Shown here: piece by piece, positions 54,001 through 57,000 of the stretch
Layout of the letters: every line of letters begins with the position of its first letter
How positions within the stretch are numbered: position 1 is the first letter of the stretch
Made by a program: the position numbers
DNA from: Escherichia coli O157:H7
GTDB taxonomy: Bacteria > Pseudomonadota > Gammaproteobacteria > Enterobacterales > Enterobacteriaceae
Direction: 5' to 3' (one strand)
Assembly (NCBI RefSeq): GCF_013167455.1
Contig: NZ_CP038328.1
Length of the DNA: 64,000 nucleotides

Positions 54001-57000
54001 GTTTTCGGTGTCAGCATGGCTGGTAAATAACTGGTATCCCACAGCAAGTATCAGCGATTTGCTGGTTGTGGTGATGAAGAAAGCCACTGCAGGCATCACG
54101 ATTAGCTGAATTTTATAACCCAGATACGGGCGCCAGAAATGGCGCCTTTTTTATTGCAGAAAAGCGAGAGGTAATTATGCGTAAATTATGTGCTGTTATT
54201 TTGTCCGCAGTAGTCTGGCAGGTCGCCGCTGCTACGCCAGCGAGTGCAGCAGAACATCAGTCCACGCTGAGCGCGGGGTATCTCCATGCCTCGACGAACG
54301 TTCCCGGTAGTGATGATCTGAACGGGATTAACGTGAAATACCGTTATGAGTTTATGGACGCGCTGGGGCTGATTACGTCCTTCAGTTATGCCAATGCTGA
54401 GGATGAGCAAAAAACGCGCTACAGCGATACCCGCTGGCATGAAGATTCCGTGCGTAACCGCTGGTTCAGCGTGATGGCGGGGCCGTCTGTACGCGTGAAT
54501 GAATGGTTCAGCGCGTATGCGATGGCGGGTGTGGCTTACAGCCGTGTGTCGACTTTCTCCGGGGATTATCTCCGCGTAACTGACAACAAGGGGAAAACGC
54601 ACGATGTGCTGACCGGAAGTGATGACGGTCGCCACAGCAACACGTCTCTGGCGTGGGGAGCTGGCGTGCAGTTTAACCCGACCGAATCCGTGGCCATTGA
54701 TATTGCTTATGAAGGCTCCGGCAGTGGCGACTGGCGCACTGACGGTTTCATCGTGGGTGTCGGTTATAAATTCTGATTAGCCAGGTAACACAGTGTTATG
54801 ACAGCCCGCCGGTTCAGGCGGGCTTTTTTGTGGGGGGAATATGGCAGTAAAGATTTCAGGTGTACTGAAAGACGGCACAGGAAAACCGGTAGAGAACTGC
54901 ACCATTCAACTGAAAGCCAGACGGACCAGCAGCACGGTGGTGGTGAACACGGTGGCCTCTGAAAATCCGGATGAAGTCGGTCGTTACAGCATGGACGTTG
55001 AGTACGGTCAGTACAGCGTCATTCTGTTGGTGGAGGGCTTCCCGCCGTCACATGCCGGGACCATCACCGTGTATGAAGATTCTCAACCGGGGACGCTGAA
55101 TGATTTTCTCGGTGCCATGTCGGAGGATGACGTCCGGCCGGAGGCACTGCGTCGTTTTGAACTGATGGTGGAAGAAGCGGCGCGTCACGCTGAGGAGGCG
55201 AAGAAGAATGCCGGAGAGGCGGAGACATCAGCGAGGAATGCCGGCATATCATCCAGTAAGGCGGAAGCGAGCGCGGCAAATGCTGACACTTCAGCAGGGG
55301 ATGCATTGGAGTCAGCCCGGCAGGCGGCAGAAAGTGCAGCCGCTGCAAAGCAGTCAGAGGATGCGTCCTCGTCCTCGGCTTCTGCGGCCGCTCAAAAAGC
55401 CAGTGAGTCATCACAAAGTGCAGCAGAAGCTGAATTGTCAAGAAAGACGGCAGAAAGTGCAGCCGGTAATGCAGCCAGGGATGCAACGACCGCAACAGAA
55501 AAAGCCCGGGAGTCAGCAGAAAGCGCACAGTCAGCGGAACAAAGCAGGATAGCGGCGGAAGAGGCCGTAAACCGAATCCCCACCGTGGTGGGACCTCCCG
55601 GGCCAAAGGGGGAACAGGGGCCCGCGGGTCCTCAGGGGCCGAAGGGTGATAAGGGAGAGCGCGGTGACACCGGCCCTGTCGGGGCAACCGGCGAACGGGG
55701 ACCGGCAGGTGATGCTGGTCCGGCAGGCCCGCAGGGGCCGAAAGGTGACAGGGGAGAGCGGGGAGAGACCGGTCTGACGGGAAATGCAGGTCCACAGGGT
55801 CCAAAGGGAGATACCGGTGCGGCAGGCCCGGCAGGCCCACAGGGACCGAAAGGAGAAACAGGTGCGGCTGGCCCGGTGGGGGCAACCGGACCTCAGGGAC
55901 CGAAGGGCGACCCGGGGGAGACACAAATCCGTTTTCGTCTGGGGCCGGCGAGCATTATTGAGACAAACAGCAATGGCTGGTTCCCGGATACAGATGGCGC
56001 ACTCATCACCGGACTGACCTTTCTTGACCCCAAAGATGCCACACAGGTTCAGGGGCTGTTTCGGCATTTGCAGGTCAGGTTTGGTGACGGGCCGTGGCAG
56101 GATGTTAAGGGGCTGGATGAAGTGGGCAGTGATACAGGCAGAACAGGAGAATGACATGAATATACTAAAAAAACTTATGCAGCGTCTGTGTGGTTGCGGA
56201 AAGCATGATGGCCGTGAACACGTGCAGTCGCTTACAGCACAACTGCGACTGGGGCCGGCAGACATCCTGGAGTCCGATGAGAATGGTATTATTCCGGAGC
56301 AGGACAGGGTAATCACGCAGGTGGTGATACTGGATGCGGATAAAAAGCAGATACAGTGCGTGGTAAGACCGCTGCAAATCCTGCGTGCTGACGGGACGTG
56401 GGAAAATATTGGCGGGATGAAGTAACCCGACAGCTTCACAAAACCGGAGTCCGGCTCCGGTTTTTGTGTTGCAATGTCCGGGGGATATTTGTTAGGTAGA
56501 TTGTATTGTATGTAAAGGCAGAGCTCCGAATTTTACTGTTGTAAGTGGGCCTGGCGGGAATGGTATCGCCAGCATCATTGGCTTGGGTCCAGTAAAAAGA
56601 GACGCAGAAAGATGCACAATAGGCACTACGCGTCATGCATGGATTAGGTCGCTCATTATTTACACAGTACTGCTAAAAAATTATTAAGGAAAGCGCGGCA
56701 CTTCGTATGTAAGAGCGTGTCGCGGTTGGCTGGTGAACTTTCGATAGTGCGAGTATTGAATGATTTCCAGCCGTTACCGATTTACGTGTTTATTAGCGAA
56801 CAAACCACTCGTCAGCAGACTCCCAGGTATCTTTCAGCGTCTCCTGAACAAAAGTTTTAGCTGAATCTTTATCGGCGGTGCGCGTAACAGAAAGGCCATC
56901 GTTGCTGGTGGCTTTTACGATCACCTCTACATCGTCATAACGTTTACTGATGCGTCGGGTTAATTCTTCCTTTAACGCATCCACAGCACCGTTTGGCATT

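Follow-up and report, generated by a model that had tools for sequence, protein, structure and literature searches.

The closest described relatives of the fiber gene considered here are the EPclA proteins (EHEC prophage collagen-like proteins, type A), a fiber class that was described, named, and biophysically characterized in 2012 (Ghosh et al., 2012, PMC3368898). In the Sakai strain of E. coli O157:H7 they include ECs2717 of prophage Sp14 and ECs2941 of Sp15, both of 437 aa with a PCoil region of 116 aa and a collagen (Col) domain of 111 aa (Table 2 of PMC3368898); EPclA collagen domains of 63, 78, 81, 111, 114, and 144 aa have been reported, the 111-aa length being common to most paralogues in Sakai and EDL933 (PMC3368898). 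The recombinant Sakai protein (rEPclA), studied by SEC-MALLS, AUC, CD, and EM, is a trimer with a collagen CD signal, a Tm of 42 °C, and a dumbbell shape by EM, in which the PCoil is an experimentally established trimeric coiled coil (Tm about 50–52 °C), PCoil and the C-terminal PfC domain are trimerization modules, and Col-PfC refolds fast (PMC3368898). The side-fiber role was put forward from domain sharing, which "strongly suggests (although does not absolutely prove)" it (PMC3368898).

Parts of this architecture recur elsewhere. EPclB (933W L0121; Sp5 ORF67 = ECs1228) of the short-tailed Stx2 phages is a 645-aa protein of a podovirus tail, with two collagen domains, a Pf2 repeat between them, and a proposed recognition of BamA/YaeT; the fiber lies at the tail end of short-tailed Stx2a phages and is essential for infection (PMC5155283). 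The attachment domain is now seen in near-atomic detail in Ur-lambda, where the gpV/gpM junction carries a collar of 12 Stf copies (PMC12617516). Among bacterial proteins, Scl1/Scl2 of Streptococcus pyogenes and BclA of Bacillus anthracis (PDB 1WCK) likewise combine hydroxyproline-free collagen, charge pairs, and a globular trimerization domain.

The present analysis concerns a tract of Gly-X-Y triplets in a 64,000-nt stretch of E. coli O157:H7 DNA (the window). With high confidence, the tract is the triple-helical collagen shaft in a side tail fiber of EPclA type, encoded by a lambdoid (long-tailed) prophage at mlrA (yehV). It is an ordinary, previously described feature, and the protein class is already known; what is added here is a nucleotide-level view of the origin of its length alleles and a correction of the suggestion that the repeats could cause assembly collapse.

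Architecture of the fiber gene and its collagen tract

Translation of the fiber ORF (Table 1) gives an uninterrupted Gly-X-Y run at aa 251–361 that opens with GPPGPKGEQGPAGPQGPKGDKGERGD, the same letters as were quoted in the preliminary description, where about 36 triplets of a side tail fiber had been placed at 55590-55915; the tract is real, and the limits given then lie 1 nt too early at the start and miss the last triplet or triplets (GDP, GET). In a six-frame scan of the window, this was the sole Gly-X-Y run of at least 6 triplets. Glycine has a frequency of 0.074 outside the tract in the same protein, and the presence of Gly in phase in 37 of 37 triplets (P ~1e-42) therefore excludes a chance origin. 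The tract scores 65.4 bits against the Pfam Collagen profile PF01391 (cut-off 27.2) and matches PDB collagen chains with E values down to 9e-71, and its reading frame is settled because PF08400 (3e-68) and PF06820 (6.5e-36) flank it in frame. The X position is occupied by Pro in 18 of 37 triplets (49%) and by Asp/Glu in 35%, and the Y position by Lys/Arg (30%), Ala (22%), Thr (22%), and Gln (16%). The tract has a G+C content of 71%. Long ORFs of 286 and 302 aa also cross it on the opposite strand or in other frames, and these most probably are shadow ORFs that arise from stop-poor, G+C-rich GGN-CCN coding DNA.

Table 1. Positions in the window of the fiber gene, its domains and junction sequences, and the neighboring features
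Feature	Position	Strand	Evidence or remark
gpJ tip attachment (central fiber) gene	50585..54109	+	Pfam J domains, annotation
Terminator-like hairpins bracketing lom	54128-54147 and 54803-54824		
lom (Ail/Lom outer-membrane protein)	54177..54776	+	PF06316 E=2e-124
Side tail fiber gene, EPclA type (PfN, PCoil, Col, PfC), 437 aa	54841..56154	+	ORF translation, Pfam, DNA match, Table 2 lengths of PMC3368898
PfN: tail-attachment "collar" domain and beginning of helical region, aa 1-133	54841..55239	+	PF08400 E=3e-68, full-length profile match
Ala/Ser-rich PCoil region, aa 134-250	55240..55590	+	composition; coiled coil from PMC3368898
Collagen domain, 37 triplets, 111 aa	55591..55923	+	translation, PF01391
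G5 run	55608..55612	+	frameshift alleles P0108 (37 members) and P0114 exit frame here
CCGAAGGG microhomology, left and right copies	55639..55646 and 55900-55907	+	junction of 261-nt deletion allele L003 (8 triplets)
AAGGG microhomology (left copy overlaps left copy of CCGAAGGG)	55642-55646 and 55804-55808	+	junction of 162-nt deletion allele L002 (19 triplets)
11-nt microhomology GGGGCAACCGG, left and right copies	55681..55691 and 55879-55889	+	junction of 198-nt deletion allele L004 (15 triplets)
G5 run	55878..55882	+	frameshift allele P0110 exits frame here
G5 run	55914..55918	+	frameshift allele P0091 exits frame here
PfC: C-terminal globular domain, aa 363-426	55927..56118	+	PF06820 E=6.5e-36, full-length profile match
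PfC-only ORF, 89 aa	56156..56425	+	PF06820 E=5.4e-36

The fiber protein is identical to RefSeq WP_000279064.1 and is matched by phrog_366, "tail fiber protein" (7e-147), and its gene is matched at 100% DNA identity by a gene annotated as "prophage tail fiber N-terminal domain-containing protein". It has the same architecture and lengths as EPclA of Sakai, together with the X/Y preferences (Table 4 of PMC3368898) and the GP(Q/P)-GPK-G(D/E) motif of that class, and the sequence features that define EPclA are all found here, namely PF08400, a PCoil nearly free of Leu, Ile, and Val, a single uninterrupted collagen domain, PF06820, and a place in an EHEC prophage tail module. The integration site mlrA/yehV is likewise that of Sp15. 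The tract with 150 nt on either side is 100% identical to phage VT1-Sakai, and the fiber gene with the following ORF is 99.1% identical; no substantive difference from EPclA was found. The ~0.9% of DNA positions that differ from VT1-Sakai in the gene pair lie outside the tract. From this near-identity to the Sakai protein, the window protein would form a collagen triple-helix trimer, with a collagen rod inferred to be ~32 nm long.

The PCoil region is rich in Ala (38) and Ser (23), with 14 Glu, and only 8 of its 117 residues are Leu, Ile, Val, Met, or Phe. By analogy with the Sakai protein, PfC would drive trimerization and nucleate the triple helix, and it is probably the distal, receptor-side knob. 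In Scl2 this nucleation of refolding belongs to an N-terminal globular domain, whereas in the window fiber the role falls to the C-terminal PfC; compared with the Gram-positive collagens, Pro in X is also lower and Thr/Gln in Y higher. A sequence search for a solved homologue of PfC found none, even at E up to 10, and an AlphaFold2 model of the PfC region from a shallow 14-sequence alignment (mean pLDDT 60.8, pTM 0.38) contained beta strands only and is of insufficient quality to search for related folds. Relatives of PfC are few, with only 49 representatives at E ≤ 1e-3 among 1.84 billion in an exhaustive HMMER search, mostly E. coli fragments or frameshift chimeras. A few of the matches are large, Big_7 Ig-like repeat proteins in which several stretches give weak matches, and this amounts to no more than a hint of beta-sandwich kinship.

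Probable tail attachment

The identification as a side tail fiber is borne out by the N-terminus, in which residues 1–93 align with residues 1–93 of Ur-lambda Stf (PDB 9E7M, E=1.5e-51, about 88% identity), and by the position of the gene after J and lom. The two proteins share the collar domain, which in Ur-lambda leads into a trimeric helical proximal shaft, and the Ur-lambda gene also lies downstream of J and lom (PMC12617516). They part beyond this point, since the shaft of lambda Stf is all coiled coil or beta fiber with a hinge and its tip binds OmpC, whereas the window fiber has a collagen shaft and a PfC tip. No Pfam match to PF03406 (Pf2 repeats) was found in the window fiber, and tfa is not annotated at the locus, where a PfC-only ORF follows the fiber gene instead; the window protein is therefore a side-fiber relative in which shaft and tip have been replaced. 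The replaced part resembles that of EPclB, with Col-PfC DNA ~95% identical from about nt 55605 of the window onward.

It is very improbable that the protein is instead a bacterial surface adhesin of the Scl1/Scl2 or BclA kind, displayed by the lysogen, binding host matrix or cells, and acting as a virulence "moron" with no part in the virion. Binding to host matrix or cells is known for collagen-like proteins of prokaryotic pathogens, BclA is among the PDB collagen matches, the neighboring lom encodes an outer-membrane protein of a type expressed by lysogens, and the role of EPclP for E. coli itself was left open by Ghosh et al. (PMC3368898). Scl1/Scl2 and BclA, however, are cell- or spore-surface proteins having export and anchoring signals, unlike the window fiber, whose N-terminus (MAVKISGVLKDGTGK) on inspection is without a signal-peptide-like hydrophobic stretch or anchor and in which no Pfam anchor domain was found. 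The N-terminus is rather the Stf collar domain, about 88% identical to the Ur-lambda structure solved on the virion, and the C-terminus is PfC; the gene lies in the late tail operon, with a terminator-like hairpin between lom and the fiber gene; known EPclP expression is tied to phage induction (PMC3368898); and the related EPclB has been immunolocalized to phage tail ends (PMC5155283).

Variation in tract length

Differences in tract length among strains and phages, as proposed in the preliminary description, are widespread, and homologues with the same flanking domains contain <5, 5, 8, 14–16, 19–21, 25, 26, 32, or 34–37 triplets. In addition, the PCoil region is shortened by 41, 63, or 114 aa in homologues. 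The exact 437-aa sequence, though present in RefSeq, is absent from the protein collection searched, so no homologue match combines a full-length PCoil with 37 triplets. At the DNA level, three shorter alleles (L002, L003, and L004) each differ by one in-frame deletion, a term used relative to the window sequence since the change could run as deletion or insertion. The junctions lie in microhomologies of 5, 8, and 11 nt, respectively, which rank in the top 3.6%, 0.6%, and 0.17% of the 3016 possible in-phase deletions. The earlier suggestion that the tract is prone to slippage is plausible, but not in the sense of a simple-sequence hypermutable tract, because the repeats are degenerate at the DNA level. 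TRF found no better tandem repeat than a 45-nt unit present twice at 84%, exact direct repeats reach 11 nt at most, and no homopolymer is longer than G5. The GPK triplets (6/6) and the GPQ triplets (5/5) each use different 9-mers; an explanation through selection against recombination by codon diversification was dropped, given P ~0.6 for 6 distinct among 32 synonymous 9-mers.

The many length alleles, the placement of their junctions in microhomologies, and the location of several frameshift alleles at G5 runs could also be taken as signs of a contingency locus, in which a hypermutable tract toggles fiber length or on/off state at high frequency within a population. This is very improbable, given that there is no perfect tandem array, that runs of G5 are on the short side for phase variation, and that the 111-aa length prevails in most Sakai and EDL933 paralogues. 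Furthermore, every sampled locus that keeps the prophage junction (H41-H43; a sample among the matches listed, from 322 genomes holding the mlrA locus) has a full-length tract that aligns as one colinear piece, and some of the database frameshift alleles may be homopolymer sequencing errors. Rare changes in the length of a collagen shaft are the preferred reading of the same alleles.

The exact repeats, of 11 nt at most, are far below read or k-mer length, and the supposed assembly collapse inside the tract is thus unlikely. The real assembly hazard is the copy number of the whole fiber gene: a single genome can carry it at as many as 16 places, and the best-matching one, ECP19-598, at 13. In total, the gene was matched at 14,830 places in 4,644 genomes. 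Many homologues come from short or truncated contigs, consistent with the multi-copy gene as an assembly problem.

Prophage context and distribution

The prophage sits between mlrA and btsS, and its genes run in the order J, lom, fiber gene, PfC-only ORF, DinI, attR, and btsS. Motifs of Stx A or B were found in no frame of the window, and the prophage is accordingly stx-negative. The usual three-tRNA cluster is nonetheless present. Matches of 100% to the fiber gene occur in O157:H7 genomes, and the gene pair is found at 97–99% in 135 phage records, among them 2851 and vB_EcoS_phi330 as examples of phages deposited with a named host.

The 89-aa PfC-only ORF begins 1 nt past the fiber stop codon, is 40% identical to the PfC of the fiber (BLASTP, E=6e-16), and is annotated as "phage tail fiber C-terminal domain-containing protein". 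It likewise lies behind the fiber gene in the three shorter alleles, and fusions of the fiber to this ORF, of 494 aa, occasionally occur. Its equivalent in Sp5, ORF68, follows the EPclB gene and is among the non-essential genes; a "reservoir" role for such a small PfC ORF has already been suggested (PMC5155283).

In ECP19-598, BLAST showed the same prophage, otherwise 99.9% identical, with two additional copies of IS1203 that are both absent from the window; the annotation of this genome was used as a guide only, since the window is not colinear with it base for base. The two insertions, a frameshifted tail gene in the same ECP19-598 prophage, and the existence of "defective" EPclA* copies (PMC3368898) might suggest that the window gene is a functionless remnant left intact by chance in a decaying prophage, but this is very improbable, given that the window counterpart of the frameshifted gene (42782..43411) is an intact ORF, that the fiber ORF has no interruption and each of its domains scores strongly in Pfam, that the gene pair is so widely conserved among the phage records, and that the reading frame is kept in the length alleles, a pattern that implies selection on the fiber protein.

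Proposed assembly and change of the fiber

An assembly pathway may be proposed for the EPclA-type fiber, of which experiments on the near-identical Sakai protein have demonstrated the trimerization and triple-helix steps (PMC3368898). Three chains would trimerize through the C-terminal PfC and the Ala/Ser-rich PCoil coiled coil, after which the 37 Gly-X-Y triplets would close up into a collagen triple helix that lacks hydroxyproline and is stabilized by Pro in about half of the X positions and by charge pairs of Asp/Glu(X) with Lys/Arg(Y). The PfN domains, judging from their identity to the Ur-lambda collar domain (PDB 9E7M), would dock as a collar at the junction of tail tube and tip, and the PfC knob would be held about 50 nm away from the tail (by our arithmetic, the sum of a collagen part of ~32 nm and a coiled-coil part of ~17 nm), where it may make the first contact with the cell surface. 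As the PfC fold is modeled with low confidence (pLDDT 61), PfC is a putative receptor binder.

Tract length would shift through rare in-frame deletions or duplications between the 5–11-nt microhomologies, which lie in the recurring GP(Q/A)-GPK-G(D/E) and GPVGATG motifs; these changes may come about by replication slippage or by RecA-dependent recombination. In addition, whole Col-PfC modules may be swapped between co-resident prophages, and the G5 runs may give occasional frameshifts.

Implications for Stx-type phages and their hosts

The fiber is a clear-cut case of a thermostable prokaryotic collagen free of hydroxyproline, and its length alleles, together with the multi-copy state of the gene, make EHEC prophages harder to assemble from short reads and to type. 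The length alleles, the non-random junctions, the Col-PfC module shared with short-tailed Stx2 phages, and the fiber-to-ORF fusions are the pieces behind a further idea, that the length of the collagen tract is a selected "ruler", with in-frame indels and Col-PfC exchange tuning the reach of PfC and the 89-aa ORF serving as a donor cassette or a co-assembling cap. This is speculative and rather unlikely; if it were true, fiber reach could be fitted to how thick the O-antigen or capsule is in different hosts, and an 89-aa PfC protein co-assembling as a cap would change tip specificity. More generally, the fiber probably influences the host range of the long-tailed phages of Stx type by which Shiga-toxin genes are spread.

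Identity of the fibre protein

The side tail fibre protein contains 37 Gly-X-Y triplets without interruption, beginning GPPGPKGEQGPAGPQGPKGDKGERGD, between an Ala/Ser/Glu-rich region, in which Leu, Ile, Val, Met and Phe make up just 8 of 117 residues, and a C-terminal prophage tail fibre domain (see table). The preliminary description, with about 36 triplets at 55590-55915, differed by 1 nt at the start and by the last triplet or triplets, and quoted the start of the sequence correctly. The run is unique across all frames of the window; with 7.4% Gly in the remainder of the protein, the probability of finding 37 glycines in phase by chance is ~1e-42. 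The tract scores 65.4 bits against the Pfam Collagen model PF01391 (cut-off 27.2), the protein aligns with PDB chains of vertebrate collagen (best E 9e-71), and PHROGs assigns it to phrog_366 "tail fiber protein" (7e-147). Its reading frame is fixed because strong Pfam domains flank it on both sides in the same frame. The collagen coding sequence is 71% G+C, stop-poor and GGN-CCN-rich, and two antisense ORFs are most plausibly shadow ORFs of this sequence rather than genes.

This architecture is exactly that of EPclA, the EHEC prophage collagen-like protein type A, defined by an N-terminal domain (PfN), an Ala/Ser-rich coiled-coil region (PCoil), a collagen domain (Col) and a C-terminal domain (PfC) (Ghosh et al., 2012; PMC3368898). 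Seven EDL933 and six Sakai copies have 437 aa, with a PCoil of 116 aa and a collagen domain of 111 aa, ECs2941 in Sp15 being one of these Sakai copies (PMC3368898). Residue preferences agree with those in Table 4 of that study: the X position holds 49% Pro, 35% Asp/Glu and 11% Ala (published 48.1, 35.6 and 10.3), the Y position holds 30% Lys/Arg, 22% Ala, 22% Thr, 16% Gln and 5% Pro (published 31.0, 21.2, 20.2, 14.5 and 7.4), and GPK, GPQ and GPA are the commonest triplets in both. Every defining EPclA feature that sequence can test was found, and the protein is therefore an EPclA member; the collagen tract is an already known feature. The product is 100% identical to RefSeq WP_000279064.1, and the absence of the exact 437-aa protein from a 15-billion-protein collection looks like a database gap rather than biology. 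Among the top homology-search matches, none combined a full-length PCoil with 37 triplets.

Features of the fibre locus and the surrounding prophage
Feature	Coordinates	Strand	Remarks
IS1203 insertion sites of ECP19-598	~13216-13221; ~17520-17524		DUF4222 gene, bet; absent from window
SIR2-family gene	about 19140-20745		adjacent to repressor region
HEPN-domain gene	about 26380-26800		nin region
tRNA cluster	29763-30014	+	CAU-anticodon tRNA, Arg-TCG, Arg-TCT
Region following tRNA cluster	about 30015-30530		
Tail gene	42782..43411		209 aa
gpJ	50585..54109		upstream of fibre gene
Terminator-like hairpin	54128-54147	+	8-bp G+C-rich stem, then T run; one flank of lom
lom	54177..54776		between gpJ and fibre gene
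Terminator-like hairpin	54803-54824	+	8-bp G+C-rich stem and T run; ends 17 nt 5' of fibre start codon
Fibre ORF	54841..56154	+	437 aa
PF08400, prophage tail fibre N-terminal		+	aa 1-133; E=3e-68
Ala/Ser/Glu-rich region (PCoil)	55240-55590	+	aa 134-250
Collagen tract	55591-55923	+	aa 251-361
PF06820, prophage tail fibre C-terminus	55927-56118	+	aa 363-426; E=6.5e-36
Col-PfC module	~55605-56070	+	
PfC-only ORF	56156-56425	+	89 aa; PF06820, 5e-36; begins 1 nt past fibre stop codon
Antisense ORF	55064-55924	-	286 aa; Pro/Arg/Leu-rich
Antisense ORF	55531-56439	-	302 aa; Pro/Arg/Leu-rich
Right prophage end	~57267		

Prophage context

The fibre gene is followed by the 89-aa ORF, a DinI-like gene on the opposite strand and chromosomal btsS/btsR, and the right prophage end is placed at ~57267 because all E. 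coli genomes among the matches listed align with the query only from that position on. Apart from two IS1203 copies that it lacks, the window is 99.9% identical to a prophage of O157:H7 strain ECP19-598 that lies between mlrA and btsS; the 209-aa tail gene, annotated as frameshifted in that strain, is intact here. The best-matching phage is VT1-Sakai (Sp15), with 99.1% identity across the gene pair and 100% across the tract with 150 nt on either side. The usual three-tRNA cluster of Stx phages is present and no Stx A/B motif was found throughout the window, and the prophage is therefore an stx-negative relative of the Stx1 prophage. Three of four Arg codons in the tract are rare (CGG twice, AGG once); the phage tRNAs could read them, a number of codons too small for more than an anecdote. 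The two strong hairpins around lom are consistent with independent expression of this gene as a "moron"; late transcripts would then have to be antiterminated to extend into the fibre gene. The SIR2-family and HEPN-domain genes, annotated by transfer from the near-identical record, are possible prophage-borne defence genes.

Fibre assembly and the PfC module

In Ur-lambda, 12 copies of Stf residues 1-94 build a collar where gpV meets gpM, from which four trimeric side fibres arise (PMC12617516), and the first 93 residues of the window protein align along their whole length with this chain (about 88% identity, E=1.5e-51). Lambda Stf shares only this attachment domain and the locus with the window fibre, whose locus lacks the Stf-type shaft, tip and tfa gene. 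The near-identical Sakai protein rEPclA is trimeric and has a dumbbell shape by EM, its stalk containing a hinge. Its Col domain has the CD signal of collagen, with a cooperative melting transition at 42 °C, and PfC is a trimerisation module with fast refolding of Col-PfC (PMC3368898). At a rise of 0.286 nm, 111 residues correspond to ~32 nm of collagen, which with ~17 nm of coiled coil would keep the PfC knob off the tail, possibly holding it out for first contact with the cell. This orientation is supported because the Col-PfC module is ~95% identical in DNA to that of many short-tailed Stx2a phages (933W/Sp5 type), and a distal fibre module is therefore common to long- and short-tailed Stx-type phages. 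The fibre of the latter, EPclB, is essential, was immunolocalised to the tail end (PMC5155283) and has been proposed to recognise BamA/YaeT. That the protein is instead an adhesin displayed by the lysogen is disfavoured by its virion-type N-terminal domain, the lack of an export signal on sequence inspection and the position of the gene in the tail operon.

The 89-aa ORF shares 40% identity with the PfC of the fibre itself and is also kept after the fibre gene at other loci; in some database proteins (494 aa, P0009/P0010) it is fused to the fibre via a frameshift within the fibre's PfC-coding region. Its Sp5 equivalent, ORF68, is listed as non-essential, and a reservoir role in fibre variation has been suggested for it (PMC5155283). 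PfC forms an exceptionally narrow family, with only 49 representatives at E ≤ 1e-3 among 1.84 billion clusters, mostly E. coli fragments; large proteins with Big_7 Ig-like repeats give weak, multi-stretch matches. No solved PfC structure was found by sequence, and AlphaFold2 gave a poor model of the monomer (pLDDT 61).

Length variation and assembly of the tract

The length variation among strains that had been anticipated is borne out by the 120 best homologues, where the same end domains enclose <5, 5, 8, 14, 15, 16, 19, 20, 21, 25, 26, 32 or 34-37 triplets; EPclA collagen domains of 63, 78, 81, 111, 114 and 144 aa have been described (PMC3368898). At the protein level, single in-frame deletions from the window allele can account for these alleles, with junctions within recurring GPAGPQGPKG(D/E) or GPVGATG motifs; a 383-aa allele, for example, lacks 54 aa of the window allele and shows 0 mismatches to it across the segment compared. 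At the DNA level, deletions of 162, 261 and 198 nt in three alleles have junctions at microhomologies of 5 nt (AAGGG), 8 nt (CCGAAGGG) and 11 nt (GGGGCAACCGG), and microhomology of at least these lengths occurs in only 3.6%, 0.6% and 0.17%, respectively, of all 3016 distinct in-phase deletions possible within the tract. The events are therefore repeat-guided, and the earlier suggestion of slippage is plausible to this extent, but the tract is not a simple-sequence repeat: the best tandem array within it is a 45-nt unit in two copies (84%), and exact direct repeats reach no more than 11 nt. Frameshift alleles exit the frame at three G5 runs (55608, 55878 and 55914), and part of them may be sequencing errors. 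PCoil is also length-polymorphic, with homologues lacking 41, 63 or 114 aa at repeated ESA(R/A) motifs, and the 41-aa difference breaks the multiple-of-seven generalisation for PCoil lengths (Ghosh et al., 2012).

A contingency locus, as an alternative reading of this variation, is disfavoured, given the degeneracy of the DNA repeats and the stability of the tract at the same chromosomal locus in the sampled genomes. A dead remnant is likewise disfavoured, since the fibre ORF and neighbouring tail genes are intact, 135 phage records conserve the gene pair and the length alleles remain in frame. In the sampled mlrA-locus genomes the tract is complete and aligns colinearly as a single piece, which together with the degenerate repeats makes the previously suspected assembly collapse within the tract unlikely. 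The real assembly hazard is the multi-copy whole gene, found at up to 16 places per genome (13 in the best-matching genome); many homologues lie on short contigs, and some homologues are cut short within or close to the tract. The additions to what is known of EPclA are thus modest only, namely the nucleotide-level analysis of the deletion junctions and the correction of the assembly-collapse idea.
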